Origin: Alphaproteobacteria bacterium
Lineage (GTDB): Bacteria; Pseudomonadota; Alphaproteobacteria; UBA828
Direction: 5' to 3'
Assembly (NCBI GenBank): GCA_965200925.1
Contig: OZ241738.1
Coordinates: 491,891-555,890, forward strand
DNA length: 64,000 bases
The translations under genes were made by a program, and so were the position numbers. The notes beneath the pieces are model-generated. The model made no database searches and was not told the DNA's origin. It saw nothing but the letters and a program-made list of their open reading frames with translations. This document shows positions 5,221 through 38,946 of this stretch, piece after piece; positions within the stretch are counted from its first letter, which is position 1; each line of letters starts with the position of its first letter.

Positions 5221-5286
5221 CGCGTTCTCCCGTCGTCGAATGCCCTTCGATATGCGGCGCCGGCGCGGGATTTCAAGGGGTTTCCT

Positions 5287-5312: not shown

Positions 5313-5480
5313 ATATGGCCTGTCGTTGACGGAGCACCGGCGCCGTGGTAGCGACCAGCCGCCATGCACGGTCAGGCCGCATGTTCCTTTCGCCTCTCGC
5401 CGGACGCCGAGTCCCGCGCCGGGGCCGAAACGGCCGGCTTCCGCCTTGGGGCCAAAGGCACGCACACCAGCCGCACGATC

Positions 5481-10191: not shown

Positions 10192-10203
10192 GGAGATACC
10201 GCA

Positions 10204-11403
10204 ATGTCCTTCATCCGCCGTATCGGCCTGCGCGGCCTGCTGTCGTTTCCGCCCGACATGGAGCCGTTCGATTTCCAGCCGCTGAACGTGCTGATCGGCC
10301 CCAACGGCTCCGGGAAGACGAACCTGATCGAGGCGCTGGAGCTTCTCCGCGCGACGCCAACGGATTTCGCCGCCGCGATCCGCGATGGCGGCGGCGCGGC
10401 GGAATGGTTGTGGAAAGGCGAGAATCCAGCGAGGGCGGCGACGGTAGACATCGAGACCGGAGACTCGACGCCATCGACCGGCCGGCCGTTGCGCTATCTT
10501 CTCCAATTCACGTCGTCGAATAGCCGGGTCGAGGTGCTCGACGAAGCGATCGAGGAAGTGAAGCCCGACATTGGACATGACGAACCGTATTTCTATTATC
10601 ACTTCCAGCAGGGACGACCGGCCATTAACGTCAAAGAGACAACGGAAGGTGGTTCTGGTGGACATGTGGAAAGGCGCCTCAAGCGAGACGACATTTTGCC
10701 GGATCAGTCTGTCCTGATGCAACGCAAGGAACCGGATCTCTACCCGGAAGTCGCTTGGATCGGGCGCATGTTCGGGCAAATCCAGACGTTCCGCGACTGG
10801 ACCTTCGGGCGTTATGCTCCATTAAGGCAGCCACAACCTGCGGATCTGCCGGAGGATCGACTGCTGCCCGATAATCGCAACTTAGCCTTGCTTCTCAATC
10901 AAGTCGAACACCGTGATCCTCGGCGGTTCAACGAACTCCTTAAGCGATTCTTCCCACGTTTTGAACGGATGTCGACCAGGATCTCCGGCGGCACGGTGCA
11001 ATTCTATCTGCATGAGTCCGGTTTCGAGTCACCGATCCCCCCGACACGGCTGTCGGATGGGACGGTGCGCTTTGTCGCTATCCTCGCGACCCTGCTGGCG
11101 CCGTCGCCGTCGCCGCTCGTATGCATTGAAGAACCGGAGCTCGGGCTGCACCCCGACGCGCTGACGCTGGTTGCCGAGCTTCTGGTAGAGGCATCCGAGC
11201 GTATGCAACTTGTGGTCACCACGCATTCGGATGCACTTGTCTCCGCGTTGACGAACCAACCGGAATCTGTCGTTGTTTGCGAGCGGCCGGGTGCGGGTAC
11301 CGTGCTGGAACGACTCGATCCCGAAAAGTTGGCGCACTGGTTGAACGAGGATTATGGGCTTGGCGACTTGTGGCGTATCGGAAAACTGGGCGCCAATCCA
11401 TGA
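10204..11403 (+). CDS. ABC-type ATPase (AAA_21/AAA_15-like; OLD/AriA/PtuA-like N-terminal ATPase), module 1
   Basis: Walker A LIGPNGSGKTNLIEALELL. Walker B/D-loop LVCIEEPELGLHPDA. H-loop VVTTHS. 399 aa. Confidence 0.75.
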   Translation: MSFIRRIGLRGLLSFPPDMEPFDFQPLNVLIGPNGSGKTNLIEALELLRATPTDFAAAIRDGGGAAEWLWKGENPARAATVDIETGDSTPSTGRPLRYLLQFTSSNSRVEVLDEAIEEVKPDIGHDEPYFYYHFQQGRPAINVKETTEGGSGGHVERRLKRDDILPDQSVLMQRKEPDLYPEVAWIGRMFGQIQTFRDWTFGRYAPLRQPQPADLPEDRLLPDNRNLALLLNQVEHRDPRRFNELLKRFFPRFERMSTRISGGTVQFYLHESGFESPIPPTRLSDGTVRFVAILATLLAPSPSPLVCIEEPELGLHPDALTLVAELLVEASERMQLVVTTHSDALVSALTNQPESVVVCERPGAGTVLERLDPEKLAHWLNEDYGLGDLWRIGKLGANP

Positions 11404-12011
11404 GTTCCGTCGAAATCTATATGGAGGGGGGAGGGGATCATCGAAATGGTAAGGAACGTCTTCGTCTCGGTATGGATGCGTTTCTTAGCGAGATGAAGGG
11501 CATGGCCAGGTCCCGGTCGACCCGCTGGAGACTCGTTCTTTGTGGTGGGCGGAACCAGGCATATCGGGCGTTTGTGGAAGCGTGTCGGAGCGACCGGGAC
11601 AGCATCTTCGTGCTGCTGGTCGATTCGGAAGGTCCCGTAAATTCCTCGCCGCGCGCCCATCTGGCCGCGGACGGGTGGGACCTGGACGGAGTGGACGAAG
11701 ACCGGGTTCATCTGATGGTCCAGACGATGGAAACCTGGATCGTCGCCGACCCCGAGGCCCTTGCCGCCTATTACAGGCAGAGCTTTCGAGCGAACGCTCT
11801 CCCGGCGGCGGACGACCTGGAAACGGTCGCCAAGAACGAGGTCGCCAGTGCCCTGGACCGGGCGACCGAGCAGACGCAGAAAGGCCGCTACCACAAGATC
11901 CACCACGCCGCCGACCTCCTCGCGTGCATCGACCCGGCGAAGGCGCGGGCGCGCTGCCGCCATTGCGAGCGCCTGTTCGCCACCCTCGACGCGGCCGTCG
12001 CGGCGGGGTGA
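11400..12011 (+). CDS. Small TOPRIM-like partner protein (DUF4276-like; alternatively DUF4435/AriB-like), module 1
   Basis: ATG 11400 overlaps the ATPase stop (ATGA). ~203 aa. N-terminal EIYMEGGGD (conserved Glu) and LLVDSEG (acidic motif) are consistent with TOPRIM/OLD-nuclease-like small partners of AAA_21 ATPases. Confidence 0.55.
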   Translation: MSSVEIYMEGGGDHRNGKERLRLGMDAFLSEMKGMARSRSTRWRLVLCGGRNQAYRAFVEACRSDRDSIFVLLVDSEGPVNSSPRAHLAADGWDLDGVDEDRVHLMVQTMETWIVADPEALAAYYRQSFRANALPAADDLETVAKNEVASALDRATEQTQKGRYHKIHHAADLLACIDPAKARARCRHCERLFATLDAAVAAG

Positions 12012-12100
12012 GGCGATGAGCGCGCTTTCGCGGGAATCGCGCCGGGCGCTGGAGAGGGCCGTCCGCAAGGCCCGCGCCGCCGCCGAAGCGGGCGCGGGCA
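11984..12100. repeat. ~117-bp direct duplication, copy A, spanning the DUF4276-1 3' end and the first 28 codons of pglX (near-identical copy B at 14003-14119)
   Basis: gcggccgtcgcggcggggtgaggcgatgagcgcgctttcgcgggaatcgcgccgggcgctggagagggccgtccgcaaggcccgcgccgccgccga is identical in both copies, then 2 mismatches and divergence after gggcaag. Confidence 0.85.
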
Positions 12101-12132
12101 AGATGAAGTTGGGGGGAGGGGAGGAGAGATGA
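12016..12132 (+). pseudogene. pglX 5' stub (MSALSRESRRALERAVRKARAAAEAGAGK + 9 unrelated codons); insertion scar
   Basis: Translation is identical to the first 28 residues of full-length PglX at 14025. Terminates after KLGGGEER; its stop overlaps the ATPase-2 start (ATGA). Confidence 0.7.
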
Positions 12133-13355
12133 ACATGACCGACGAACAGCTTGCTGGCGTTCCGCGGATCGAGCGTTTGAAGGTGCGGAATTTTCGGGTG
12201 TTGAAAGACGTCGATATAAGGGATTTGACGCCTTTGACGGTGCTGCTTGGACCGAACGGGAGCGGCAAAACCACCTTGTTCGACGTGTTCGCGTTCCTCT
12301 CCGAATCCTTCGAGGACGGCCTGAGGCGCGCCTGGGATCGACGCGGGCGGGCCAGAGAGCTCAAGACCCGTGGCGCCAAAGGCCCGGTCATCGTCGAACT
12401 CAAATACCGCGAGCGACCGGGCACACCGCTTATCACCTATCACCTGGAGGTGGACGAGCATGATGGCGCGCCCAGTGTCGTCCGTGAATGGCTATGGTGG
12501 AAACGGCACAGCTATGGACGCCCGTTTCGTTTTCTCGAATACCGAAATGGCGGAGGCACAGCGATCAGCGGCGAACAACCCGATGTCGAGGAGGATAGAA
12601 TCCCAATTCCTCTCAAGTCTCCCGACCTGCTGGCGGTCAACACGCTTGGGCAGCTCCGGGAGCATCCGCGCGTGGCCGCGCTGCGCGACTTCATTATGAA
12701 CTGGCACGTATCCTACCTTTCCGTGGATGACGCGCGCGGGCATCCGGAAGCGGGCCCCGAGAAGTGGTTGACCAGGACCGGCGATAATCTCGCCAACGTG
12801 ATTCAGTATCTGAAGGAGAATCATCCGAAGCGGTTGAAGAGGATATTCAAATTATTGGGGCGGCGGGTGCCGCATGTCGAGAAGGTTCGCGCTGAAACCA
12901 TGCCGGACGGGCGACTGCTTCTGCAAATCAAGGACGCGCCGTTCGATCATCCGGTTCAGGCGCGCTTCGCTTCCCATGGAACGCTCAAGATGCTGGCCTA
13001 TCTGGTGTTGCTGCATGACCGGAATCCGTCGCCGTTCATCGGTATCGAGGAACCGGAGAATTTCCTGCATCCGAGGCTACTTCCCGAATTGGCGGAAGAA
13101 TGCCGCGCGGCCAGCGCGCGCACGCAACTGCTCGTCACGACGCACTCCCCGTTTTTTCTGAACGCGCTTCGCCCCGAGGAAGTCCGCGTTTTGTGGCGCG
13201 ACGAAACCGGCCACGCGCAGGTCGAGCAGACCTCTGGTCTCGAGGGAGTGGCGGAGTTCATGGATAACGGGGCGCTGCTCGGGCAGCTGTGGGCAGAAGG
13301 GCAGTTCGGCGTCGGCGATCCACTGGTCCGTCGCGGCGGAGGACGCCGCCGATGA
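12129..13355 (+). CDS. ABC-type ATPase (AAA_21-like), module 2, diverged paralogue of the 10204 gene
   Basis: RIERLKVRNFRVLKDVDI...LTVLLGPNGSGKTTLFDVFAFL (Walker A). FIGIEEPENFLHP (Walker B). LVTTHSPFF (H-loop). 408 aa. Confidence 0.75.
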   Translation: MNMTDEQLAGVPRIERLKVRNFRVLKDVDIRDLTPLTVLLGPNGSGKTTLFDVFAFLSESFEDGLRRAWDRRGRARELKTRGAKGPVIVELKYRERPGTPLITYHLEVDEHDGAPSVVREWLWWKRHSYGRPFRFLEYRNGGGTAISGEQPDVEEDRIPIPLKSPDLLAVNTLGQLREHPRVAALRDFIMNWHVSYLSVDDARGHPEAGPEKWLTRTGDNLANVIQYLKENHPKRLKRIFKLLGRRVPHVEKVRAETMPDGRLLLQIKDAPFDHPVQARFASHGTLKMLAYLVLLHDRNPSPFIGIEEPENFLHPRLLPELAEECRAASARTQLLVTTHSPFFLNALRPEEVRVLWRDETGHAQVEQTSGLEGVAEFMDNGALLGQLWAEGQFGVGDPLVRRGGGRRR

Positions 13356-13969
13356 CGTCGGCGCGCCATTTTATATTTCTTGTCGAGGAACCATCCATGG
13401 AGGCGTTTCTCCAGGCGCTCGTTCCACGTATTCTTCCCGATTGCGAGTGCGACATTCGACTGTTTCAGGGGAAACGGGATACGATGAAAAATCTACCGAA
13501 CCGTCTTCGCGCTTATAGCCGCTGGCTGCCCGAAAATTGGCGTATCGTCGTGATGGTCGATCGCGACAACGACGATTGCCGGCTGCTCAAGGCGCAGCTG
13601 GAAAAGGCAGCTGCCGAGTCGCGGCTACGCACGCGCGCGCAATCCGGCGGCGCTTGTTGGCAGGTCGTCAACCGCATCGTGATCGAAGAACTGGAGGCTT
13701 GGTATTTCGGAGACTGGGACGCCGTTCGGCGCGCCTACCCAAAGGTTCCCGATACGATTCCGGGGAAAGCTAAATACCGGAACCCGGACGAGATACACGG
13801 CGGAACGTGGGAAGCATTCGAGCGTGTCCTTCAGAAGCACGGGTATTTCAAGGGTGGGCTACGCAAGATCGAGGCCGCGTGCGCCATCGCCCCGCACGTC
13901 GATCCAGGGCGCAACCGGTCGCCGAGTTTCGCGGCGTTTCGCGATGCACTCGTCGAGGCGGCTGCCTGA
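13352..13969 (+). CDS. Small TOPRIM-like partner protein (DUF4276-like), module 2
   Basis: ATG 13352 overlaps the ATPase-2 stop. ~205 aa. FIFLVEEPSMEAF (conserved Glu) and VMVDRDNDD (DxD) are typical of TOPRIM. Confidence 0.55.
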   Translation: MTSARHFIFLVEEPSMEAFLQALVPRILPDCECDIRLFQGKRDTMKNLPNRLRAYSRWLPENWRIVVMVDRDNDDCRLLKAQLEKAAAESRLRTRAQSGGACWQVVNRIVIEELEAWYFGDWDAVRRAYPKVPDTIPGKAKYRNPDEIHGGTWEAFERVLQKHGYFKGGLRKIEAACAIAPHVDPGRNRSPSFAAFRDALVEAAA

Positions 13970-14002
13970 CGATGGCGATTGGGAAGAAATGCTGGCGGCG
14001 CG

Positions 14003-14119
14003 GCCGTCGCGGCGGGGTGAGGCGATGAGCGCGCTTTCGCGGGAATCGCGCCGGGCGCTGGAGAGGGCCGTCCGCAAGGCCCGCGCCGCCGCCGAGGCGG
14101 GTGCGGGCAAGGCGCTGGA
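14003..14119. repeat. ~117-bp direct duplication, copy B (covers the start of functional pglX)
   Basis: See copy A at 11984-12100. Confidence 0.85.
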
Positions 14120-17100
14120 AAGCCTCGCGGTCGGCCGCCGCGAACCTTGGGAGTCGATGACGCCGGACGGCCGCGCGCTGCGCAACCGGCTGCGCGCCCA
14201 CGGGCGGCATCTCGGCGACCGGCGCGACCCCCGGAGCGGCACACAGGCGAGCGGCCGGCTGATGCGGGAATGCGCCTACGAGCACTGGCACCGGATGCTG
14301 TTCGCCCGCTTCCTCGCCGAGGCCGGCCTGCTGATCGAGCCGGAAACCGGCGTCGCCGTCACCCTCGCCGAGGCGAAGGAGCTCGCCCGCGCCACCGGCG
14401 ACCGACCACTGGCCACCGGCGACCGACCACTGGCCACCGGCGACCGACCACTGGCCACCGGCGACCGACCACTGGCCACCGGCGACCGACCACTGGCCAC
14501 CGGCGACCGACCACTGGCCACCGGCGACCGACCACTGGCCACCGGCGACCGATCACTGGCCACCGGCGACCGACCACACGACTGGCTGGCGCTGGCCGGC
14601 GCCTGGGCCGGGCGGATGCTGCCGCAGATCTTCCGCGCCGGCGACCCGGTTCTCGACGTCGCCTTGCCGCCGGAAACGCGGGCCGACCTCGAAGCGCTGC
14701 TGGAGGGGCTGCCGCGCGCGACCTTCCTCGCCGACGACAGCCTCGGCTGGGTCTACCAATTCTGGCAGGCGGACAGGAAGGAGGCGGTCAACCGCTCCGG
14801 CGTCAAGATCGGCGCCGACGAGCTCCCGGCCGTCACCCAGCTCTTCACCGAGGATTACATGGTCCTGTTCCTGCTCCACAACACGCTGGGCGCGTGGTGG
14901 GCGGGCAAGGTGCTGGCGGCGCGCCCCGGCCTCGCGCAATCGGCCGGAAGCGAGGAGGAACTGCGCGAAGCCTGCAAGGTCGGCGCCGTGGAGTGGCGCT
15001 ATCTGCGCTTCGTCCGCGCGGAGGGGGAAGATGGCGCACCCGGCCCGTGGCGCCCGGCGGCGGGCGCGTATCCCGGCTGGCCGCGCGCGGCGAAGGACGT
15101 GACGCTGTGCGACCCGTGCATGGGTTCGGGGCATTTCCTGGTCTTCGCCCTGCCGATCCTCGCCGCGTTGCGCATGGCGGAGGAGGGGCTTTCGCGGGAG
15201 GCGGCGACGGACGCCGTGTTGCGCGACAACCTCTTCGGCCTGGAGATCGACCCGCGCTGCACGCAGATCGCCGCCTTCACCCTCGCCTTCGCCGCGTGGC
15301 GCATGGCGGGATACCGCTCGCTGCCGGCGCTGAACCTCGCCTGTTCCGGCCGCGCCGTCGGCGCGTCGAAGGCGGAATGGCGGCGGCTGGCGGAGAGGGC
15401 CGCCGCGGCCGCCGACCCGGCCGCCGCCCGCGACCCGCTCGGCGCGGAGGAGACCTTGCGCGCGGCCGGCGTCGAAGAGCGCGTGAAGAACGGGCTCGAG
15501 GCGCTGCACGAATTGTTCGCCCAGGCGCCGGCGCTCGGCAGCCTGATCGACCCGCGCCGGGTGAGCGGCGACATCCTGACCGCGGATTTCGAGGCGCTGG
15601 AGTCGTTGCTGGGCGTGGTTCTCAAGGCGGCGGAGAACGACAGTGAGACCGCGGAGATGGCCGTCGCCGCGCAGGGCATGGCGAAGGCGGCGGAACTCCT
15701 GGGGCGGCGCTTCACGCTGGTGGTGACGAACGTGCCCTTCCTCGGGCGCGGCAAGCAGGACAGGGTGTTGCAGGACCATCTGGCGGTGCATTTCGACGAC
15801 GCGAAGCGCGATCTCGCCACCGCCATGCTTCGCCGCCTGCTGGGCTTCGCGGATACGGGCGGGGTGGTCGCCGCCGTTACGTCGCAGAATTGGCTGTTCC
15901 TGAAGTCCTACGCGAAGCTGCGCAAGCGCGTGTTGCGGGAAACGACATTGAACGTCGTCGCCGCGCTCGGGCCACGCGCGTTCGAGACCATCAGCGGCGA
16001 GGTCGTGAATACCGCCCTGGTAACACTCACCGCCACCTCGCCGCCAAGCGATGCGGCCTTTGCTAGCCTGGACACCAACGACGGTGCGGATGCGGCCGCG
16101 AAAGCGCGGGCGCTGTCGCAGGGGGAGCTATCGCTGCCGGCGCAGGCGGCGCAGAACGCGAATCCGGTTTCTAACCCTGATCTTGTTATTGGATATGAAA
16201 GCAAAGAAGGAACTCAAACCCTTGATAGCGTAAGTTATTGCTATCAGGGCTTGGCGACCAGCGATAATTCCCAATTTGTTATCAACTTTTGGGAACTTGC
16301 AAGGATTTCTGGTGGCTGGGAACCATTCCAAATGACATCCGATGGGACATCAACCTTGAGCGGATGCTCTTGGATAATCCATTGGGAGAACGGCGAAGGT
16401 CGTTATGCACGACATGCGAAGGCTCTAAAAAAGGCAGGAAGGCTTGGAGGATGGAAATCAGGCCATGAGGCTTGGGGGAAGGTTGGCGTCGCAGTCAACA
16501 GAATGAAAGATCTTCCATGTTCTCCATATTTCGGTACAATGTTCGATTGTAATGTTGCTGTTATTATACCTGACGATCCTGAAGATTTCTCGTGGATTTG
16601 GGCACAGGTTCGGACTTCTGAGTATTCAAAAGAGGTTCGTCGACTGAACCGGAATGTTAGTGTGGCCAATCTGACGTTGATCAGGGTGCCGATTGATGAA
16701 AAAATTCGTAGAGCCGATTCATTTCCTAACTTGAGCGCAGCGCAGTGCCCCAACCCGACGCAATGGCTGTTCGACGGACACCCCGCCCGCGCGGACGCAC
16801 CGCTGCAGGTCGCCGCCGCCCGCCTGTGCGGCTATCGCTGGCCACGCCAGACCGGCTCCAGCTTCATGGATTGCCCAACCGTCGGCCCCGACGGGCTCGA
16901 GCGCCACGCGGACGCCGACGGCATCGTCTGCCTCGCCGCCATCGCCGGCGAGGCCCCGGCGCACGAACGGCTGGCCGCGCTGCTCACCGACGCCTTCGGC
17001 CCCGATTGGTCGGCGGCCCGGTTCGCCGGCCTGCTCGCCGAGGCGGGCTTCGCCGGCAAGAGCCTCGACGACTGGCTCCGCGACGGCTTCTTCGCCCAGC

Positions 17101-17735
17101 ACTGCAAGCTGTTCCGCCACCGCCCCTTCGTCTGGCACGTCTGGGACGGCCGCCGCGACGGCTTCCACGCGCTGGTCAACTGCCACCGCCTCGCCGCGCC
17201 CGGCGGCGAAGGCCGGCGCACGCTGGAGAAGCTGATCTGGTCCTGTCTCGGCGCCTGGATCGACCGCCAGCGGGCCGAACGGGACGCGGAAACCGAAGGC
17301 GCCGACGCCCGCCTCGCCCACGCCGAACACCTGCGCGCCGAACTCGTCAAGGTCCTCGAAGGCACGCCGCCCTACGACCTCTTCGCCCGCTGGAAGCCGC
17401 TCCACGAACAACCCCTCGGCTGGGAGCCGGACGCGAACGACGGCGTGCGCGTCAACATCCGCCCCTTCATGACCGCCCGCCCCCTCGCCGCCAGGGCAAG
17501 GAACGCTTGCATCCTGCGCACGACGCCCAACATCCACTGGCGCAAGGACCGCGGCAAGGAGCCCCGGCGGGAGAAGGCCGACCACCCCTGGTTCTGGAGC
17601 CGCAACCCGGACGACCCTGCCCACGAAGTCGATTTCCCCGGTGGCGCGGATTTCGACGGCAACCGCTGGAACGATCTGCACTACACTCGCGCCGCCAAAG
17701 AAGCCGCGCGGGCGGCGGAAGGAGAAGGCCGATGA
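14025..17735 (+). CDS. pglX: BREX adenine-specific DNA methyltransferase PglX (~1236 aa)
   Basis: N6-adenine MTase motifs DPCMGSGHFLVFA and VVTNVPFLG. Size and position. ATG 14025 chosen inside ORF 13824..17735. Confidence 0.85.
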   Translation: MSALSRESRRALERAVRKARAAAEAGAGKALESLAVGRREPWESMTPDGRALRNRLRAHGRHLGDRRDPRSGTQASGRLMRECAYEHWHRMLFARFLAEAGLLIEPETGVAVTLAEAKELARATGDRPLATGDRPLATGDRPLATGDRPLATGDRPLATGDRPLATGDRPLATGDRSLATGDRPHDWLALAGAWAGRMLPQIFRAGDPVLDVALPPETRADLEALLEGLPRATFLADDSLGWVYQFWQADRKEAVNRSGVKIGADELPAVTQLFTEDYMVLFLLHNTLGAWWAGKVLAARPGLAQSAGSEEELREACKVGAVEWRYLRFVRAEGEDGAPGPWRPAAGAYPGWPRAAKDVTLCDPCMGSGHFLVFALPILAALRMAEEGLSREAATDAVLRDNLFGLEIDPRCTQIAAFTLAFAAWRMAGYRSLPALNLACSGRAVGASKAEWRRLAERAAAAADPAAARDPLGAEETLRAAGVEERVKNGLEALHELFAQAPALGSLIDPRRVSGDILTADFEALESLLGVVLKAAENDSETAEMAVAAQGMAKAAELLGRRFTLVVTNVPFLGRGKQDRVLQDHLAVHFDDAKRDLATAMLRRLLGFADTGGVVAAVTSQNWLFLKSYAKLRKRVLRETTLNVVAALGPRAFETISGEVVNTALVTLTATSPPSDAAFASLDTNDGADAAAKARALSQGELSLPAQAAQNANPVSNPDLVIGYESKEGTQTLDSVSYCYQGLATSDNSQFVINFWELARISGGWEPFQMTSDGTSTLSGCSWIIHWENGEGRYARHAKALKKAGRLGGWKSGHEAWGKVGVAVNRMKDLPCSPYFGTMFDCNVAVIIPDDPEDFSWIWAQVRTSEYSKEVRRLNRNVSVANLTLIRVPIDEKIRRADSFPNLSAAQCPNPTQWLFDGHPARADAPLQVAAARLCGYRWPRQTGSSFMDCPTVGPDGLERHADADGIVCLAAIAGEAPAHERLAALLTDAFGPDWSAARFAGLLAEAGFAGKSLDDWLRDGFFAQHCKLFRHRPFVWHVWDGRRDGFHALVNCHRLAAPGGEGRRTLEKLIWSCLGAWIDRQRAERDAETEGADARLAHAEHLRAELVKVLEGTPPYDLFARWKPLHEQPLGWEPDANDGVRVNIRPFMTARPLAARARNACILRTTPNIHWRKDRGKEPRREKADHPWFWSRNPDDPAHEVDFPGGADFDGNRWNDLHYTRAAKEAARAAEGEGR
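14391..14577 (+). repeat. In-frame 21-bp tandem repeat (gccaccggcgaccgaccactg, ~8.9 copies) encoding (ATGDRPL)n within pglX
   Basis: Eight perfect or near-perfect copies from 14391 (copy 8 carries a C>T giving P>S) plus a partial ninth. Translation ATGDRPL x7, ATGDRSL, ATGDRPHDW. Confidence 0.9.
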
Positions 17736-20494
17736 CCTTCCAACGACAGGCCACGGAAAAGTGGCGTAACGAAGTCCCCGGCGCGCGCTGGTTCAAGGCC
17801 GACCTGCACGTCCATACCATCGACGACCACGCCGGCCGGGCGAAAATGCCGGACGGCCTGTCGGGCGATCCGGCGGACCCACAGACGCTGGAGGACTACG
17901 CGCGGCGCTTTCTCCGGGCCGTCGTGGAACGCGGCGTGCAGGTCGTCGGGCTGACGCCGCATTCGCCGCGCGCGGGGGACGGCTCGGACACGAGCGCCGT
18001 CTGGCGCATCGTCGAGGAGTGGAACGAAGGAACCGACGACGACGGCATCCCGTTCCGGAAGAAGATATACGCCGTGTTCCCCGGATTCGAACCGTCGCTC
18101 CGGGAGGGAAAAGAAGGCTTGCATCTCCTGTTTCTGTTCGATCCCGAAATCGGCCGCGATCGTTATCTGAGAGTCTTCGATCTTGTTATGGGCGGCGTTT
18201 CGCCTTGGCAAGGCGGAACCTTGCAGATCTCCGGCAAGCGTGCGGACCAAGCTTTCGACGATTTGAAGAATTTCCGGGAGCGTGAACACTCCGTCGGCGA
18301 GGGTTGGAATTCTCTTGTCCTCGCCCCCCATATCGACGCCGACAAGGGTTTGCTCGGCACGCAGAAAGCCCAGGTTCTGCAACTCTTTGATCACGGAGCA
18401 ATCGCCGGTCTGGAACTCGGCGACGACAAGCTGCCGAAAGAAATTTTGCAGAACCGTCTGTGGCTCCGCGATGGAATGGAAACGCATCGTCAGGCGTTCT
18501 TCCACGCCAGCGACGCCTACGGTCCGGGCGACGTCGGCCGTCGCCATACGTGGATCAAGCTCGCGAGTCCGCGCATCGAAGCCCTGCGCCAAGCGTTCGT
18601 CGCCAGCGATTCGCGCGTGCGGATCGGCTTCGAGAAAGGCAGCGATGGCGCGCTCCGGCCGATCGACCATCCGCCCGCCGTTATATCCGGAAACCGCCCT
18701 TGGCTGAGAGAGGTGACGGTACGCGGCGGCGTTTCGTTCTTCGGCGGCCAGGAAGATGGTAAGCCGAGAGGGACCCGCTTCCGGCTGAATCCGGACCTGA
18801 CCTGCATCATCGGCGGCAGCATGACCGGCAAGAGCACCTTGCTCGACGGCCTGCGCTTGCATGTCGGTGCGCCGTTGCCCTCCAACGAGGCGGTCCGCAG
18901 GCAGGTCGAAACCCGGGGCCGGAACGTTTTCGCCGCCGGTTCGCCCGAGGTTGCGCTCGACTGCCCTGGCCAGGACCCCACTGCACCACCGTTGGAACGG
19001 TGGCCCGCCCGGTTCTTCGCCCAGAACGAATTGCAGCGCCTCTCCCAAGAGAGCGCGGCCGCTGAAGACATTCTTGCGCGCCTGATTCCGTCCGAAATAG
19101 AAGGAATCGATGGGCGCGGCGCCGAGTTGAAACGCCTCGACAAGCGCCTCGCCGATCTGGCCAGGCAGCTCGCGAAACTCGATGAAACCGTCGGGGAAGC
19201 GGAGCAGGATTGTCAACGCACCGGCGACGCGAAAGTGGCGCTCGCCGCCTTTTCCGAAGCCGGCGTGGACGATCTCCACCAAGCCAGCCGTGAGCGGCGG
19301 GCCTGGGAATCGACGGCGAGCACCGTTCAGACGGCTCTCCGAGGTCCTGTCAGGGAAATCGTTCGAGCCGCGCGGGAAATCGACTTGCCGCCCGTGGGCG
19401 GGAAGCAGGTGGAGATTCCGTCAGAGAATTCGGTCGATTGGCGAAAGCTGGATCTGGACGGAAGACAACGCCGGATCGTCGAACGCCTGGAAGCCGTGTC
19501 GCAAGAGGCGGAGAAATGGATCGCTGACATTCTCGACGTCTCCTTGAAAATGGGCAAACGCGAGGCCGCCGTTCGTATCGAAGTGGAGCGAGCTCTTGCC
19601 GCCCGCGGATACGACGCCGGGACACTCAAGGAGATTCAGCAACTCACACGCCAAGCATCGCTGTTTCCCAATTACGCGGCGCATCGCGACGATACGCGCC
19701 GCCGACTCGCGGCGGACGAGAAGGCGTTCGGCGACTCGTCGAAGGAGCGCCGTGCTCTCGTCGAAGAGCAGCGACGGGCCTTCGCGCGCGTTGCCCAAGG
19801 CGTGAACCGGGAATTCGGAGGCCGGATCCGTGTGCACCGGATTGACGACGCCGACACCCGGACTCTCGACGATTTCTTGAGAGGGCTACGGCAAAAGGGC
19901 GTGACGCGCTGGTGGAACGACTTCGACCCGACGAAGAAACCCTCGCCCGACAGGCTGGTCGCGTGCCTCGCCGCTGGTTCCCTCGCCGAAGTCGGCATGA
20001 GCGATGCCGTCCAGGAAAGGTTCCGCGAGAGCGTCACCAAGTCGAAGCGGCGTGAGTTGGCCGCGCTGCGGTGCCCGGACCGTTACGTTCTCGAACTGCG
20101 GATGGACGACGGTTCCTACCGCCCTCTGGACGATCTTTCTGGAGGCCAACGAGTCAGCGTTCTTCTCTCCCTTCTTCTGGAAACCGAAGATGCCCGCCCG
20201 CTGGTGATCGACCAACCCGAGGACGAACTCGACAACCGGTTTCTGTCGGAAACGGTCCTCCCGGCACTGAAGAAACTGCGCGGTCGGCGGCAAGTCATCG
20301 TCGCGACGCACAAGGCGGAGATCGTCGTCAATGGAGACCCCGACATGGTGATCCTTCTCGACGCGACGGCCCACCACGGGCGCGTGGCATGCGCCGGCGC
20401 GATCGAGGAACCGGCCGTTCGCGACGCCATCGTGCGCACTGTGGACGGCGGGGAGGAAGCATTCCGTCTTCGACGGCGGAAATACGGATTCTGA
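17732..20494 (+). CDS. PHP-domain phosphoesterase fused to an SbcC/RecF-like ABC ATPase (920 aa); nested accessory gene between pglX and pglZ
   Basis: N-terminal PHP motifs: FKADLHVHTIDDHAG, LTPHSP, APHIDADKG. RecF/SbcC-like N-lobe with Walker A: LTCIIGGSMTGKSTLLDGLRL. Long coiled-coil-like middle region. ABC signature and Walker B/D-loop: LSGGQRVSVLLSLLLE...LVIDQPEDELD. ATG overlaps the pglX stop. Confidence 0.7.
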   Translation: MTFQRQATEKWRNEVPGARWFKADLHVHTIDDHAGRAKMPDGLSGDPADPQTLEDYARRFLRAVVERGVQVVGLTPHSPRAGDGSDTSAVWRIVEEWNEGTDDDGIPFRKKIYAVFPGFEPSLREGKEGLHLLFLFDPEIGRDRYLRVFDLVMGGVSPWQGGTLQISGKRADQAFDDLKNFREREHSVGEGWNSLVLAPHIDADKGLLGTQKAQVLQLFDHGAIAGLELGDDKLPKEILQNRLWLRDGMETHRQAFFHASDAYGPGDVGRRHTWIKLASPRIEALRQAFVASDSRVRIGFEKGSDGALRPIDHPPAVISGNRPWLREVTVRGGVSFFGGQEDGKPRGTRFRLNPDLTCIIGGSMTGKSTLLDGLRLHVGAPLPSNEAVRRQVETRGRNVFAAGSPEVALDCPGQDPTAPPLERWPARFFAQNELQRLSQESAAAEDILARLIPSEIEGIDGRGAELKRLDKRLADLARQLAKLDETVGEAEQDCQRTGDAKVALAAFSEAGVDDLHQASRERRAWESTASTVQTALRGPVREIVRAAREIDLPPVGGKQVEIPSENSVDWRKLDLDGRQRRIVERLEAVSQEAEKWIADILDVSLKMGKREAAVRIEVERALAARGYDAGTLKEIQQLTRQASLFPNYAAHRDDTRRRLAADEKAFGDSSKERRALVEEQRRAFARVAQGVNREFGGRIRVHRIDDADTRTLDDFLRGLRQKGVTRWWNDFDPTKKPSPDRLVACLAAGSLAEVGMSDAVQERFRESVTKSKRRELAALRCPDRYVLELRMDDGSYRPLDDLSGGQRVSVLLSLLLETEDARPLVIDQPEDELDNRFLSETVLPALKKLRGRRQVIVATHKAEIVVNGDPDMVILLDATAHHGRVACAGAIEEPAVRDAIVRTVDGGEEAFRLRRRKYGF

Positions 20495-20503: not shown

Positions 20504-21706
20504 ATGGAATGGGCGAACGTACTGCGACGCATAGAAGCGGGCGAAGACCGAACCACCGAGTTCAAGCGGGAGCTCGGAAACGACCTGTCCGCCGTCGGCA
20601 AGGCGATTTGCGCGTTCGCGAACGGTGAAGGCGGCTTGATCGTCCTTGGAATCGACGACGCGGGATCCATCATCGGGCTGAACGCAGATCCGCACAAGGT
20701 GCATGAGCGATTGACCGATTTCCTGCAAACCGGATGCAGCGCGCCGGTCGGGGCGCGCTATGGACGGCACGAGGTCGCGAACGGCTGGGTCCACTGGATC
20801 GAGGCGCCCCGCATCCGGGGACCGGAACCGCTTCGCTACCGCGGGCGCACCTACATTCGCCGCGAACGAAGCAGCGTGGAGCCCTCTCCCCACGAGCTTC
20901 AGGAATTGTTCAACGCCTTCGGCTTTGTCTTAACCGAAGAACAGGCGATTCTGGCGGCGAGTGTCGAAGACATCGATATCAAGTCGTTCCGGTCGTTCCT
21001 GCGCAGACGGGGGCTCGAAACGGAGGAAGAGCCGCAACCCTCGATCGAGGACGATCTGCGCAATGCCCGCGTTCTGCGCGACGTCGACGGAACGCTTCGC
21101 CCCACTCTCTACGGGCTGATGGTCTTCGGCCGGGATCCCCAGGCGCATCCGCACACCGGAAGCTTCTGGATCCAATGCACCGCCTATGCGGGCCGCGACC
21201 GGGCGTCGGACGTCATCCTGGTCGGGGAGGGCAAGGGGCACCTCGACGAACAGGTGCGCCGGGCGCTCGGCTGGCTGAAGAGCCTGGGGTGGACCGAATC
21301 CTATCCCGGCATCCTTCGCGAGGATCGCCCGCTGATCCCCGAACCCGCGGTTCGCGAAGCGCTGGTGAACGCCGTCGCCCACCGCGACTACGCGCTCATC
21401 GGCTCGCCCGTGCAGCTCGAAGTGTTCCGCGACCGGGCCGCCGTCACCAGCCCCGGCACGCTCCCCAACCACATGACGGTCGAAAACGTCCGGTTCGGCG
21501 GTCTCCCACGCTCCCGCAACGAGTGGATGGCGAACGCCATGGTCGTGGCGCGCCTGATGGAAAAGCGGGGGCTCGGTTGGCTCAGGATGCGCCGCGAAAT
21601 GCAGGCGTTCAACGGCACCGAACCGGAACTGGTCAACGACGAAGGCGGCAAATTCGTCCGCGTGACCTTCCGCCTGAAGCCGGAACCCGCCGGGGAAAAA
21701 GCGTGA
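20504..21706 (+). CDS. AlbA_2/Schlafen-like divergent-AAA ATP-binding protein with C-terminal HATPase_c_4-like region (putative nucleic-acid-binding)
   Basis: N-terminus ...EDRTTEFKRELGND...AICAFANGEGGLIVLGIDDAGSIIGL is typical of the AlbA_2 (Schlafen group) domain. 400 aa. The PglZ GTG start overlaps its stop. Confidence 0.5.
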   Translation: MEWANVLRRIEAGEDRTTEFKRELGNDLSAVGKAICAFANGEGGLIVLGIDDAGSIIGLNADPHKVHERLTDFLQTGCSAPVGARYGRHEVANGWVHWIEAPRIRGPEPLRYRGRTYIRRERSSVEPSPHELQELFNAFGFVLTEEQAILAASVEDIDIKSFRSFLRRRGLETEEEPQPSIEDDLRNARVLRDVDGTLRPTLYGLMVFGRDPQAHPHTGSFWIQCTAYAGRDRASDVILVGEGKGHLDEQVRRALGWLKSLGWTESYPGILREDRPLIPEPAVREALVNAVAHRDYALIGSPVQLEVFRDRAAVTSPGTLPNHMTVENVRFGGLPRSRNEWMANAMVVARLMEKRGLGWLRMRREMQAFNGTEPELVNDEGGKFVRVTFRLKPEPAGEKA

Positions 21707-24030
21707 CGACCGCCACCCTGATCGACGCGATCCGCGAGTCGATGGCCGCGAGCCTGCACGGGCCGGACGGCGCGGAACCGCCCGCCGCCCTGCTCTGGAC
21801 CGACCCGGACGGCCAGTGGCGGCCGCTGATCCCCGCGCTCATGAAGGCGCTGCCAGAACTCTACGCCCTCGGCGCCTACGCGCCCGCGGAACGGCGCGGA
21901 CCGGTCATCTGGCTCAAATGCGTCGTCGAACGGACCCTGCCCGACGCGGCGCCGGAAGTGGGCGCGACGCCGGTCCTCTACCTGCCCGAGGTGGGGCGCC
22001 AGACGCTGCGGGCCGCCGACGATTGCGACGCCACGCTCCAGCCGCTGGTCGAGCTGCAATATCGCGGCGCCGTCTGGCATCAGCGCAACGGCCGCGACTG
22101 GACGGTCGAGGCGTTCCTCGCTTCCGACGACGCGCTCGGGCTCGACGTGGCGCGCGACGCGGCGACCCGCGCCGCCGCGTTGCGCGCCCTGCCCTTGCTG
22201 GCGGCGGAGCCGGTCGCGACGCTGCGCGGCCGCCGGCTCGAGGCGGAGGATTTCGACCGCCTGTCGATCGGCGATCCGATCCGCGATCTGTTGACCTGGA
22301 TGAGCGACGCCGCGGCGTTCGAGGCGGACTGCGACCCGGACCGCTGGGCGGCGTTTCGCGACGTCTGCGCGCGCGAATTCGCGTTCGACCCGGAGACGGA
22401 CGGCCTCCGCGCCGCCGCGGACACGCTGGCCGCGGGCGGCGGCAAGTGGAACGAGGCTTGGCGGCGTTTCTGCGATGTGCCGCTGCTTTACCCCGGTATT
22501 CCCGCCGTTCTGCGCACGGCGCGGCCCAAGGACCTGTTGCACCCGGTCGAACCGTCCCGCCGGCCGGGCCTGAACGAGGAGCGGGAAGACCGGCTTCGCG
22601 CGGCGCTGGAAGCGGCCGCCGGGCTTCCCCACGCCGACGCCTGCGACAGGGTCGCGGCGCTGGACGACGAACACAGGGAACGCCGCGGCTGGGTGTGGGC
22701 ACAGCTCGGCGAGAGCCCCTGCGCGTTGGCGCTGGAGCCGCTCGGCCGCCTCGCCCGCGCGGCGAAGCGCGAGGCGGAGGCCGCCTCGGCCGAAGCGCTG
22801 GCCGCGGACTACGCCACGCAAGGGTGGCGCTGCGACCGGGCGGCGATCGAGGCGCTGGCCTGCCCCAAACCCGGCGCCGGACACGGTCTCGTCACCAGCG
22901 TCGTGCGGGCGCTGTACGAACCGTGGCTCGACCGCGCGGCGCGGCGCTTCCAGAGCCTGCTTTCCGCCGGGCATCCCGATCCGGGCGCGTTGACGAGCGG
23001 CGTCGACGCCGAACCCGGGGTCTGCATCCTCTTCGCCGACGGGCTGCGCTTCGATCTCGGGGCCATGCTGGGCGAGCGGCTGGAGGCGCGCGGCGTCCGG
23101 GTGCGGCTCGGGCATCGCATGGCGCCGATCCCGACCGTGACCGCCACTGCGAAGCCGCTGGCTTCCCCCGCCCATGCGGCCTGTGCCGGCGCGGCGAGCG
23201 CGGAGGATTTCTGCCCCGCGGTTGCCGGCGCCGGCAAGCCGGCGACCGCCGCGCGGCTTCGCGCCCTCATGGTGCGGCAGGGCATCGCGATTCCGGAGGC
23301 CGGCGAAATACCCATGGCGCTCGACGGCGGCGCCGGCGCCTGGATGGAAACGGGAAAGATCGACACGCTCGGCCATTCCCTGGACGCCGCACTCGCCCGC
23401 CAGATCGACGCGGAGATCGACGCCATCGCCGACCGTGTCGATGCGCTTCTCGCGGCCGGCTGGCGCAAGGTCCGGGTCGTGACCGATCACGGCTGGTTGC
23501 TGCTTGCGGGCGGATTGCCGCGGGTCGATCTGCCGCCGTCGTTGGTCGAAACCAAATGGTCCCGCTGCGCCGCCGTTCGAGGCGAGTCGGAACCCGTCGT
23601 TCCCACCTACCCGTGGCACTGGGACCCGTCGCTGCGGATCGCCTCGCCGCCGGGAATCGGCGCCTTCCGTGCCGGCACGGAATACGCCCACGGCGGCGTC
23701 AGTCCCCAGGAATGCGTCGTGCCCGATTTGCTCGCGGAGCGCGACGCGGCCGTCGCCGCCGCGCGGATAACGAGCGTGGTCTGGCGTGGGATGCGCTGCC
23801 GGATCGCCGTCGAGACCGGCGCGCCGGGGGCGAAAGTCGACCTGCGGCTCAACCGCAGGCAGGCCGAATCCAGCATCGCCGCCGCGGTCCGGGCGCTGAA
23901 CGATGCCGGCGAGGCGAGCCTCGTCGTTCCCGACGACGAGCACGAAGGCGCCGCGGCCCTGGTCGTGGTTCTGGACGAAGCGGGGCGGGTGCTCGACGAC
24001 CGCCCGACCACCGTCGGCGACGGAGGGTGA
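21703..24030 (+). CDS. pglZ: BREX alkaline-phosphatase-superfamily protein PglZ (~775 aa)
   Basis: N-terminus LIDAIRESMAASLHGPDG...LLWTDPDGQW. PglZ-domain motif VVTDHGWLLL. Position before brxL. Start GTG 21703 (alternative ATG 21742). Confidence 0.85.
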   Translation: MTTATLIDAIRESMAASLHGPDGAEPPAALLWTDPDGQWRPLIPALMKALPELYALGAYAPAERRGPVIWLKCVVERTLPDAAPEVGATPVLYLPEVGRQTLRAADDCDATLQPLVELQYRGAVWHQRNGRDWTVEAFLASDDALGLDVARDAATRAAALRALPLLAAEPVATLRGRRLEAEDFDRLSIGDPIRDLLTWMSDAAAFEADCDPDRWAAFRDVCAREFAFDPETDGLRAAADTLAAGGGKWNEAWRRFCDVPLLYPGIPAVLRTARPKDLLHPVEPSRRPGLNEEREDRLRAALEAAAGLPHADACDRVAALDDEHRERRGWVWAQLGESPCALALEPLGRLARAAKREAEAASAEALAADYATQGWRCDRAAIEALACPKPGAGHGLVTSVVRALYEPWLDRAARRFQSLLSAGHPDPGALTSGVDAEPGVCILFADGLRFDLGAMLGERLEARGVRVRLGHRMAPIPTVTATAKPLASPAHAACAGAASAEDFCPAVAGAGKPATAARLRALMVRQGIAIPEAGEIPMALDGGAGAWMETGKIDTLGHSLDAALARQIDAEIDAIADRVDALLAAGWRKVRVVTDHGWLLLAGGLPRVDLPPSLVETKWSRCAAVRGESEPVVPTYPWHWDPSLRIASPPGIGAFRAGTEYAHGGVSPQECVVPDLLAERDAAVAAARITSVVWRGMRCRIAVETGAPGAKVDLRLNRRQAESSIAAAVRALNDAGEASLVVPDDEHEGAAALVVVLDEAGRVLDDRPTTVGDGG

Positions 24031-24032
24031 CG

Positions 24033-26081
24033 ATGGAACTCGACCGTCTGGACGAACTGGCCGCCGCCGCCTTCGATGGCTACCTGGTGCGCAAGGATCT
24101 GGTCCGCAGATACGCGCGCCAGTACCCGGTGCCGACCTACGTCGTCGAATTCCTCCTCGGGCGCTACTGCGCGAGCGTCGACGAGGCGGAGATCGAAGAA
24201 GGGCTGCGCATCGTCGAACGGTTGCTGAAGGACCGGACCGTCCGCACCGGCGACGAGGAGCTGTTCAAGGCGCGGGCGCGGGAGAACGGGTCGATCCGCC
24301 TCATCGATCTGGTCAAGGCGCGGCTGGACGCGCGCAACGATTGCTATGTCGCCGAACTGCCCAGCCTGAATCTGCGCCACGTCCGCATCGACGACGAACT
24401 CGTCGGCGACAACGAGCGCATGCTGACCGACGGCTTCTATGCCGAGGTCACGCTCGGCTACGACGGCGTCATCGCTCAGGAGAAGGATGGGCGGCCTTTC
24501 AAGGCGGAGGCACTGCGGCCGATCCAGATGTCGAAGCCGGATGTGCTCGACGTCTACGCCGGCGCGCGGCGCGGGTTCGCGACCGGCGAGTGGATCGATT
24601 TCCTGCTGCGCTCCGTCGGCCTGGAGCCGGCGGCGTTCGACGAGCGCGCGAAGCGGGTGGCGCTGCTGCGCATGGTCCCGTTCGTGGAGCGGAACTACAA
24701 TCTGGTGGAGCTCGGGCCGCGCGGGACCGGCAAGAGCCATCTCTTCCAGCAGATATCGCCCTACGCGCATCTGGTTTCCGGCGGCAAGGCGACCGTCGCC
24801 AAGATGTTCGTCAACAACGCCAACGGCCAGCGCGGCCTGGTCTGCCGCTACGACGTGGTCTGCTTCGACGAGGTCGCCGGCATCTCCTTCGACCAGAAGG
24901 ACGGCGTCGGCATCATGAAGGGCTACATGGCCTCGGGCCAGTTCAGCCGCGGCAAGGAGAACATCCGTGCCGACGGCAGCTTGGTGATGGTCGGCAACCT
25001 GGATGCCGACATCGAGCAGCAGCAGCGGATCGGCCATCTGTTGCGCCCGCTACCGCCCGAGATGCGGGACGACACCGCGTTCATGGACCGCCTGCATGCG
25101 TTCGCGCCGGGCTGGGACTACCCGAAGCTCGCGCCGGGTGCGCATCTGACCGACCATTTCGGCCTCGTCAGCGATTTCCTCAGCGAGTGCTGGAGCCGGC
25201 TGCGCAGCGGCAACCGCGTCTCTGCGATGCAGAGCCGGGTGCATCTGGGCGGCGCGTTGAGCGGGCGCGACATCGAGGCGGTCAACAAGACCGTCGGCGG
25301 CCTCATCAAGCTGCTGTTCCCGGACCCGGACATGCCGGTCGCCGACGACGATCTCGAATGGACCGTGCGGCTGGCCCTGGAAGCGCGCCGCCGCGTCAAG
25401 GAACAGCAGAAGCGCGTCTTCAAGAGCGAGTTCCGCAACACCCATTTCAGCTACATCCTGGGTACGGAGGGCGTCGAGCGGTTCGTGGCGACGCCGGAGC
25501 TGCACAGCGACGAGGCGATCGACAGCGACCCGTTGCCGCCGGGGCAGGTCTGGGGCGTCGGCGCCGGGTCGGGCGGCGCCGGGGCCGGCCTCTACCGCAT
25601 CGACGTCACCTGCGGTCCGGGCGGCGGCGTGCGCATCCTGAACCAGCCGACTCCGCCCGCGTTCCGAGAGAGCGTGCGGGTGGGCGAACAGAACCTGTAT
25701 GCGCGGGCAAAGCAGCTGGTCGGCGACCGCAACCCGCGCGAGGACGAGTTCACGGTCCAGATGCGTCCCATGGACGCCACCATGTCGGGCGAGGGGCTGG
25801 GGGTGCCGGTGCTGGTCGCCCTCTGCGGGGCCCTGCTCGGCCGCAACACCCGCGGCGGCGCCATCGTCGCCGGGGCGCTCAATCTCGGCGGCTCGATCGA
25901 GCCGGTCCCGAACGCGGCGCGGGTCGCGGAGCTCGCCGTCGACAAGCAGGCCCAGACGCTGCTGATGCCCGTCTCCGCGCGCCGGCAGCTCGACGACTTG
26001 CCCGACGATCTGTGGACCAGGATCAACATCGAGTTCTACAAGGACGGCCCCGACGGCGTATTCAAGGCGCTGATGGAGTGA
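24033..26081 (+). CDS. brxL: BREX Lon-like protease BrxL (~682 aa)
   Basis: MELDRLDELAAAAFDGYLVRKDLVRRYARQYPVPTYVVEFLLGRYC N-terminus. AAA+ Walker A GPRGTGKSHLFQQISPYA. Lon-like C-terminus. Last gene of the operon. Confidence 0.85.
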   Translation: MELDRLDELAAAAFDGYLVRKDLVRRYARQYPVPTYVVEFLLGRYCASVDEAEIEEGLRIVERLLKDRTVRTGDEELFKARARENGSIRLIDLVKARLDARNDCYVAELPSLNLRHVRIDDELVGDNERMLTDGFYAEVTLGYDGVIAQEKDGRPFKAEALRPIQMSKPDVLDVYAGARRGFATGEWIDFLLRSVGLEPAAFDERAKRVALLRMVPFVERNYNLVELGPRGTGKSHLFQQISPYAHLVSGGKATVAKMFVNNANGQRGLVCRYDVVCFDEVAGISFDQKDGVGIMKGYMASGQFSRGKENIRADGSLVMVGNLDADIEQQQRIGHLLRPLPPEMRDDTAFMDRLHAFAPGWDYPKLAPGAHLTDHFGLVSDFLSECWSRLRSGNRVSAMQSRVHLGGALSGRDIEAVNKTVGGLIKLLFPDPDMPVADDDLEWTVRLALEARRRVKEQQKRVFKSEFRNTHFSYILGTEGVERFVATPELHSDEAIDSDPLPPGQVWGVGAGSGGAGAGLYRIDVTCGPGGGVRILNQPTPPAFRESVRVGEQNLYARAKQLVGDRNPREDEFTVQMRPMDATMSGEGLGVPVLVALCGALLGRNTRGGAIVAGALNLGGSIEPVPNAARVAELAVDKQAQTLLMPVSARRQLDDLPDDLWTRINIEFYKDGPDGVFKALME

Positions 26082-26127
26082 GTCGACGCTGATATCGGTG
26101 GCTGCGGATTCGCCCCGAGGGGCGCCT

Positions 26128-26568
26128 CTACGCGGCCCGCGTCGCCACCACCAGCCGCTGTCCGAGGGCGTGAAGCGCCGCCTCGATATGGCCGATGTGC
26201 GACCGGTGGTCGAGGTCGAGCAGGCACCGCACCGTCCCCTCCACGGTCCCCAATCGCTTGGCCAGCGCGGCGTTGCCGAGCCCGCGCTCGCGCATCGCGC
26301 GGTAGAGAGCGATCTCGGCGGCGACCAGTGCGGGCAGCGCGACAAGCGGACGTCCCCTTCCCGGCGACGGCAGCGGAATGTCGCGGCGGGCTTCGATGTA
26401 TCCACCGAGCGCGGCGACGAGGCAGTCCTCCGCCTCCGCCAGCGCCTCCCGCTCCATGGCGCCTTCCGTCAAGGCTTCCGGGACGTCGGGAAACGACGCC
26501 AGCACGGACCCCCCTTCCTCCGCCTCGAGCCTGACGGGATACGCCAACCGCATCGACCGTATCGTCAT
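26128..26568 (-). CDS. hicB: Type II antitoxin HicB family
   Basis: MTIRSMRLAYPVRLEAEEGGSVLASFPDVPEALTEGAMEREALAEAEDCLVAAL matches HicB N-domain consensus. C-terminal DNA-binding tail. SD caggag upstream of ATG 26568. Confidence 0.7.
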   Translation of the reverse strand: MTIRSMRLAYPVRLEAEEGGSVLASFPDVPEALTEGAMEREALAEAEDCLVAALGGYIEARRDIPLPSPGRGRPLVALPALVAAEIALYRAMRERGLGNAALAKRLGTVEGTVRCLLDLDHRSHIGHIEAALHALGQRLVVATRAA

Positions 26569-26620
26569 GGTTTTCTCCTGAGTCCCCGGAGGTCCTCTCG
26601 GGACAGCCCGAGTTGCCGGA

Positions 26621-26797
26621 TCATGGCCGCGAGGAGGCCTTGGCCGATTTCCTTGAAGCGGTCCTTGACCGTGATGAAACGATCCCCATAACGCAGACGG
26701 CCATGACTTCCCTTGCCCGTTCGGGATTCGAAGCGCACCGCGACGCCCGTTCCCGACCGAGCCTTCGGACGCGCCTGACGAACTCGTCACCGGTCAT
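26621..26797 (-). pseudogene. Possible decayed hicA toxin remnant (frameshifted; GSH motif replaced by GSV)
   Basis: MTGDEFVRRVRRLG in one frame. HicA-like ...EGSVGNGRRGALRIPNGQGKSW only in the adjacent frame, fused to the hicB leader. No intact HicA ORF. Confidence 0.25.
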
Positions 26798-28310: not shown

Positions 28311-28318
28311 GGTGGAGA

Positions 28319-38940: not shown

Positions 38941-38946
38941 GCGGCC

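Follow-up and report, generated by a model that had tools for sequence, protein, structure and literature searches.

What is a 920-residue protein that joins a predicted PHP (polymerase and histidinol phosphatase) domain to an ABC ATPase doing between pglX and pglZ of a bacteriophage exclusion (BREX) operon, and does it belong to BREX at all? We addressed this question for a 64,000-nucleotide stretch of alphaproteobacterial DNA (contig OZ241738.1, positions 491,891 to 555,890), hereafter the window. The gene lies at 17732..20494 (+) in an open reading frame (ORF) that is free of stops on translation, and the operon around it is type 1 BREX, with brxA, brxB, brxC, pglX, a type B pglZ and brxL. 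We find that it is a trlF-like gene paired with a 400-residue trlG-like gene at 20504..21706 (+), and that the two form an autonomous unit that is nested in the BREX operon. The identity, the pairing and the autonomy of this trlF-trlG unit can be stated with high confidence. We further consider it probable that the two genes make up a mobile module in which TrlF is a sensor ATPase that controls TrlG, a Schlafen-type tRNase.

The pair is set tightly into the operon. The stop of pglX and the start of trlF share bases in an ATGA at 17732-17735, with a GGAAGGAGAAGG motif just 5' of the trlF ATG; 9 nt separate the trlF stop from the trlG start, and the trlG TGA and the pglZ start codon (GTG, at 21703) run together as GTGA. 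A scan of the plus strand from pglX to brxL found no terminator-like site. The original prediction had described this non-canonical position, a translational coupling to pglX and an AlbA_2-like gene downstream, and was right about the position. Given so tight an insertion, the module would be co-transcribed with BREX.

The closest family is TrlF. The protein aligns end to end with the NCBIfam model NF045780, 'TrlF family AAA-like ATPase' (338.1 bits, E 1.8e-100; residues 17-919 on profile positions 2-944 of 944), and hundreds of full-length homologues exist: a word-indexed search gave 913 matches at E<=1e-10, 311 cluster representatives match at E<=1e-30, and 811 plasmid records carry relatives at 23-30% identity. 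No BREX family model matches it. It had been suggested that the protein might correspond to Ppl, a candidate system of Gao et al. 2020 that likewise combines a PHP nuclease and an ABC-type NTPase in one chain of ~900 residues. The kinship is real, since the best PADLOC match is indeed Ppl (PDLC02208; E 1.1e-31, 107.8 bits in two stretches), but orthology is rejected: the Ppl model NF042955 gives 135.4 bits against a curated cut-off of 1000 bits, and its best stretch covers residues 783-914 only, so that just the C-terminal part aligns well. The NCBIfam Spaf_1101 model gives a weaker, partial match. TrlF proteins from plasmids score 560-636 bits on the TrlF model, and one from an Escherichia coli IncF plasmid also matches the Ppl model over its full length (528 bits), which argues that TrlF and Ppl are sister families with one architecture.

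The ATPase is the best-defined part of the protein, which is an ABC ATPase of the SMC/Rad50 type with every motif and the coiled-coil insert present. The N-terminal half of the head (residues ~325-452; 18704..19087, +) contains Walker A (G361-GSMTGKST, ending at T369) and the Q-loop (Q431). The C-terminal half (residues 695-920; 19814..20494, +) contains the signature L802-SGGQ (802-806), the segment V825-IDQPEDELD with Walker B D827, catalytic E830 and D-loop D834, and A858-THK, ending at residue 861, with the H-loop H860. K367, Q431, S803-G-G, D827, E830, D834 and H860, as well as the GKS of Walker A, are invariant in 81 sequences. An ABC ATPase is all that sequence models detect here: AAA_21 and SMC_N in Pfam, and AriA and Rad50 in the PDB. 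A phmmer search of the whole protein against the PDB returned generic ABC matches and no Ppl-like structure. In the full-length predicted model (predicted local distance difference test score, pLDDT, 72.8), long helices at 453-548 and 575-694 form an antiparallel coiled coil between the head halves (residues 453-694; 19088..19813, +), delimited by the secondary structure of the model and by Foldseek matches. Its apex (549-574) is of low confidence and no CxxC hook is present. Foldseek matches the model to the heads, with coiled coil, of SMC, MukB, JetC, Rad50, RecN and LmuB.

The N-terminal domain (residues ~18-300; 17783..18631, +) is predicted to adopt the distorted alpha/beta barrel of the PHP fold, and its closest structural match is the repair endonuclease EndoQ (PDB 5zb8), at 14% identity and, unlike TrlF, without an ATPase. 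The putative metal ligands are D24, H26, H28, D32, H77, E120, H131, H200, H258 and D261, in part within the motifs H26-V-H28-T, D31-D32, H77-S-P and H200-I-D-A-D. Eight of them (D24, H28, D32, H77, E120, H131, H200 and D261) are at least 90% conserved among homologues down to 22% identity, and none of the commonly shared ligands is missing from the window protein. The PHP and ABC motifs listed in the original prediction all occur in the 920-residue translation and sit in invariant or near-invariant columns of alignments of 25-75 homologues. The proposed fusion of a PHP domain with an SMC/Rad50-like ATPase is thus borne out by the predicted PHP fold and by the SMC-like head with its coiled coil.

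The second gene encodes a Schlafen/AlbA_2 nuclease domain (TrlG residues 14-125), with the triad E14-x4-E19-x-K21 and a CAFAN box at 36-40, followed by a GHKL ATPase of the HATPase_c_4 type (residues ~270-389; Pfam match 300-389) with E285 and N289. Both Pfam matches exceed their cut-offs (70.8 and 70.7 bits, respectively), and the PADLOC match is to the N-terminal Schlafen (SLFN)-GHKL part of a prokaryotic Argonaute (pAgo) model. E14, E19, K21, E285 and N289 are conserved in all 72 TrlG orthologues, in which the triad follows the pattern E-x4-(E/D)-x-K and the CAFAN box is kept. A triad, a CAFAN-type box and the GHKL E/N are the features that mark active Schlafen tRNases of prokaryotes and the 'Schlatpase' module, which is driven by ATP (bioRxiv 10.64898/2026.05.29.728809; PMC13462974). 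TrlG resembles the Schlatpases of the SLFN-pAgo protein RzAgo (bioRxiv 10.64898/2026.05.29.728809) and of Cash (PMC13462974) in its AlbA_2 and PF13749 domains, in the E-x4-(D/E)-x-K triad, in a SAFAN-like box and in the GHKL E/N. In the window, by contrast, the sensor would be a separate PHP-ABC ATPase, and not an Argonaute, Csx15 or NACHT domain fused to the effector.

We searched one genome per species, which gave 285 TrlF relatives, and kept 80 loci at 46-73% identity. A full-length TrlG-like gene lies directly 3' of trlF, at gaps of 9-45 nt, in 71 of the 77 loci whose sequence extends far enough, and these come from more than 10 phyla; the other three loci end at contig ends and are not countable. 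Loci whose TrlF is closer to that of the window also tend to have a closer TrlG (r = 0.78 between the two identities, n = 71). The idea of a single-gene system therefore does not hold for this gene, and the AlbA_2-like gene, first taken for a mere neighbour, is a conserved partner.

Could TrlF nevertheless act alone, as a Ppl-like exonuclease that is gated by nucleoside triphosphates (NTPs) and degrades phage DNA 3'-5' from its ends, with the Schlafen gene a separate defence that shares the same hotspot? Ppl itself is a single-gene system (PMC12904381), and Schlatpase proteins that stand alone mostly lack a fixed partner (bioRxiv 10.64898/2026.05.29.728809). Moreover, six of the related loci (L021, L027, L044, L046, L055 and L075) lack trlG despite having room for it, as do two plasmids, and in all of these the PHP ligands are intact. 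We recognised no alternative effector 3' of trlF in the six loci, only a thiolase, a helicase fusion and unannotated ORFs, so that effector swapping is not seen. Independent action is nonetheless unlikely in view of the close adjacency in so many phyla, the correlated divergence of the partners, and the retention of the pair in Enterobacteria at 23-27% identity. A further 12 TrlFs (L057, L066, L067, L069, L072-L074 and L076-L080; at about 10001-12750 of their loci, mostly in metagenome-assembled genomes (MAGs) of Acidimicrobiia, Poriferisodalis and Aldehydirespirator) have lost several PHP ligands (E120, H131, H200, D261). In all 12 the ATPase motifs are complete and an intact TrlG gene lies alongside, a conservation that would make no sense for a stand-alone nuclease. 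Together, the patterns of PHP loss and TrlG loss point to the ATPase as the constant part, with at least one nuclease always retained.

The genomic contexts bear on whether the pair belongs to BREX. Only three of the 80 related loci (L004, L062 and L065) are in BREX, each in the order pglX-trlF-trlG-pglZ-brxL. The BREX-nested copies are spread over three distinct TrlF lineages, the closest relatives of which lie outside BREX: the window protein is 73% identical to L001 and L004 is 74% identical to L052, while L062 pairs with L065. This distribution argues that the cassette entered or left the pglX/pglZ junction more than once. In seven other loci, of a type III-like kind, the order is Res - Mod - trlF - trlG, and the stop of the N6_N4 methylase gene lies ~70 nt 5' of trlF (L018, L020 and L032, at 3500-16100; L008, L012, L019 and L068). 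Here Res combines ResIII and RE_endonuc domains (~1050 residues) and Mod is an N6_N4_Mtase protein (~950 residues); in L018, L020 and L032 a UvrD-like helicase follows trlG. L014, whose TrlF is closely related to that of L068, also has the helicase, but neither Res nor Mod is recognisable there. In L012 a second Mod-like fragment (14024-15013), 78% identical to the Mod of L018, lies directly 3' of trlG; the methylase gene may have been duplicated there, or cut in two, by the cassette.

A more distant pair occurs on the Citrobacter IncC plasmid pCFR-0b27 (NZ_CP026233.1, L081; 2194-13161), in the order hsdM - hsdS - TrlF - TrlG-like - hsdR. The TrlF and the TrlG-like protein, the latter annotated as 'RNA-binding domain protein', are 23% and 27% identical to those of the window, respectively, and the pair occupies the place within a type I restriction-modification (R-M) operon that PrrC has in EcoprrI. 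On an E. coli plasmid the order is helicase - N6 methylase - trlF. Homologues at 46-73% identity are found in MAGs of more than 10 phyla, and the hosts include Alpha- and Gammaproteobacteria, Dehalococcoidia, Acidimicrobiia, Vicinamibacterales and Latescibacterota, a span that makes horizontal transfer evident; several MAGs bear sponge-derived names (Poriferisodalis, Poriferisocius), which suggests intense exchange within one habitat. The family is nearly absent from viral contigs, with only two weak relatives in IMG/VR. In the window, trlF and trlG have a GC content at third codon positions (GC3) of 0.75 and 0.81, respectively, compared with 0.87-0.92 for brxA, brxC, pglZ, brxL and dnaX, which fits a later acquisition. 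The scarcity of BREX loci, together with the R-M and plasmid contexts, indicates an autonomous, horizontally moving trlFG module that is nested in BREX and is not a component of it.

These contexts leave little room for the alternative that the pair is a dedicated BREX accessory for restriction or methylation, for instance the nuclease that BREX lacks, which was one of the two options first put forward for this gene; the other, a nested independent system, is the one that the survey favours. The tight operon integration with stop/start overlaps on both sides, the shared gene order of the three BREX loci and the presence of independent TrlF lineages at one junction would all suit such a role. 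We regard an accessory role as improbable, because 77 of the 80 related loci are outside BREX, the pair also follows type III-like and type I methylase genes, and the composition of trlFG is foreign to the BREX core. In addition, within the accessible portions of the BREX survey PMC12839542, text and supplements, the word PHP is absent and no PHP partner is mentioned for BREX-linked Schlafens. Canonical BREX-1 functions without trlFG. It is more improbable still that TrlF is a housekeeping DNA repair protein, an SbcCD/Mre11-Rad50 analogue with PHP in the place of the Mre11-type nuclease, a role that its Rad50/SMC-like head with coiled coil, the structural nearness of its PHP domain to EndoQ and the RefSeq Gene Ontology term 'double-strand break repair' would suit, but that is contradicted by the patchy spread across unrelated phyla, the occurrence in BREX, R-M loci and plasmids, the Schlafen RNase partner, a GC3 below that of host genes, and a Photorhabdus locus that is not essential and does harm at 36 °C (PMC7554251).

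That locus, the Temperature Restricting Locus (TRL) trlR-trlF-trlG of Photorhabdus laumondii (Front Microbiol 2020, PMC7554251), shares the two core genes and their order with the window. The TrlF family is named after it, its TrlF was annotated as a histidinol phosphatase, and its TrlG has AlbA_2 at 14-128 and HATPase_c_4 at 298-365 (14-125 and 300-389 in the window). The names 'TrlF' and 'TrlG' were found in the literature only in this paper. The window has no trlR, nor any room for one, since the stop codon of pglX overlaps with the start codon of trlF, and its pair is nested in BREX, unlike that of Photorhabdus. The TRL phenotype is growth arrest above 34 °C rather than phage defence, and no mechanism was proposed for it. 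The growth-arresting gene at 36 °C is trlG: of 29 heat-tolerant mutants, 20 are affected in trlG and not one in trlF, the larger gene (PMC7554251), in keeping with TrlG as the toxin. Mutations in an activator should have turned up as well, and TrlF is therefore more likely to restrain TrlG, or to be neutral, than to activate it.

We hypothesize that TrlF is both sensor and controller of the module. Its ATPase and coiled coil would recognise a phage-linked cue, which by analogy with Ppl could be free 3'-OH DNA ends, dropping NTP levels, or both; Ppl is described as an exonuclease that degrades single-stranded DNA 3'-5', is inhibited by NTPs and detects 3'-OH ends (PMC12904381; Xu et al., Mol Cell 2026, via PMC13434339). 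The PHP domain would degrade DNA in cis, while TrlF would restrain TrlG through a putative contact. Upon a trigger, or upon collapse of the complex, TrlG would oligomerise through its GHKL domain and cleave tRNA, which would halt translation and bring about abortive infection, so that the output could be the cis DNA nuclease, the trans RNase, or both. SLFN-GHKL modules are known to cleave tRNA after ATP-driven tetramerisation (bioRxiv 10.64898/2026.05.29.728809), and prokaryotic Schlafens are tRNases that are linked to BREX and R-M (PMC13462974). We hold the restraint of a tRNase by its sensor with moderate to low confidence.

Restraint of this kind would resemble that of AriB by AriA in PARIS, or the state of Lamassu in which, according to the title of PDB entry 9hqu, the sensor ATPase LmuB sequesters the nuclease effector LmuA. 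LmuB and the Wadjet protein JetC, with SMC-like heads and coiled coils, are among the top structural matches of TrlF. The window differs from Lamassu and Wadjet in that it has no kleisin-like LmuC or JetA, a shorter coiled coil, a PHP domain in cis and an RNase as effector. PARIS (the ABC ATPase AriA with the TOPRIM tRNase AriB) and PrrC of EcoprrI also couple an ABC sensor to a tRNA-cutting effector, by analogy with what we propose here, and both are embedded in BREX or type I R-M and act upon attack on host restriction (PMC12839542; bioRxiv 10.1101/2024.01.29.577857). In contrast to these, the window ATPase is SMC/Rad50-like with a coiled coil instead of OLD-type, the effector is a Schlafen instead of a TOPRIM or PrrC nuclease, and there is an extra PHP nuclease domain.

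Within BREX, the most likely role of trlFG is that of a back-up suicide system, a second line that would come into play once BREX has been evaded or inhibited. Schlafen genes, with histidine-kinase-like and winged helix-turn-helix genes, occur beside the cores of BREX and related systems in at least 1017 taxa and have been interpreted as back-up suicidal effectors (PMC12839542), and a back-up role was likewise proposed for embedded ABC systems (bioRxiv 10.1101/2024.01.29.577857). A broader and more tentative idea is that trlFG is a general guard cassette of methyltransferase-based immunity, inserted just 3' of the methylase or specificity genes in BREX and in type I and type III R-M systems. 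TrlF would then keep TrlG latent until a phage anti-restriction factor, or the DNA ends or NTP drop of an infection, caused TrlG to fire. If this were true, trlFG would follow a logic like that of PrrC and PARIS with different parts, and the temperature limit of Photorhabdus would be a heat-triggered autoimmunity of a phage defence.

Several observations weigh against a sensor ATPase that controls a Schlafen tRNase in defence. The window protein falls 12 bits below the curated TrlF cut-off (338 vs 350 bits); because the miss is marginal, and three siblings that are 50-64% identical to it pass the cut-off at 361-372 bits, we regard it as a divergent edge member of the family. The Pfam PHP model (PF02811) does not match it at E<=1, and a profile of the N-terminal domain run against PDB sequences gave only a chance match and no PHP protein. 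The expectation that the PHP domain would show up by profile or by structure has thus come true for structure alone, and the assignment rests on the predicted fold. Residue 263 is a tyrosine in place of the last canonical PHP histidine, a replacement common to the whole subfamily with the conserved H258 nearby, and judged from the sequence the nuclease activity of the PHP domain is not assured. PADLOC 2.0 has no model that recognises the window TrlG as part of a system, and a crude detection recognised no R-M or BREX gene within 10 kb in about three quarters of the related loci. The Photorhabdus data are equally compatible with TrlF being irrelevant to the action of TrlG. We found no experiment on phage defence by any trlFG pair in the literature and no paper that names trlFG a defence system; the ABC-ATPase classification of Krishnan et al. 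2020 may hold a prior description.

The remainder of the operon is in keeping with type 1 BREX. The genes brxA (5364-6173, +) and brxC (6736-10191, +) flank brxB, which is assigned by position only, within the ORF 6026-6739 (+); a BrxB-BrxC fusion was considered and rejected, since brxB is in a different frame. The methyltransferase gene pglX is at 13824..17735 (+, exact start uncertain), the type B phosphatase gene pglZ at 21703..24030 (+), and the Lon-like brxL at 24045..26081 (+, start approximate). Inside pglX, the GC content drops to 0.47-0.51 at 16100-16700, compared with ~0.70 on either side, and this trough may mark a swapped target-recognition segment. Between brxC and pglX (10204..13969, +) are two tandem HEC-01-like pairs, each an ABC ATPase (AAA_21) with a DUF4276 protein, at 10204-11403 / ~11400-12011 and 12129-13355 / ~13367-13969, respectively. 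Their GC3 of 0.66-0.77 is also well below that of the BREX core. With trlFG, they bring the number of nested cassettes in this one BREX operon to three. HEC-01 reportedly gave no defence in its sole published test.

Three long ORFs of the window match no Pfam or NCBIfam family. Two lie immediately 3' of brxL (26098-26691 and 26959-28569, both +), and the third, at 38272-41037 (-), has 921 residues, nearly the size of the protein studied here, to which it is unrelated. These could be shadow ORFs in DNA of 69% GC, or unknown genes.

The trlFG locus of the window is a divergent member of an already known kind. The components and the idea of nesting were known before, and what this locus adds is a functional assignment together with a hypothesis, not a new kind of system. 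trlF-trlG had been catalogued, the Photorhabdus pair was known only for its growth-temperature limit, and Ppl and the prokaryotic Schlafens were explained only in 2026, each as a separate system. The window locus and its ~80 relatives show that a PHP-ATPase and a Schlafen form one conserved mobile unit, found repeatedly in BREX and R-M operons, for which we propose a testable model in which a sensor ATPase is combined with a cis-acting DNA nuclease and a trans-acting tRNase. This model would also offer a mechanistic reading of the Photorhabdus phenotype, and may thereby bear on the inability of some strains to infect mammals.

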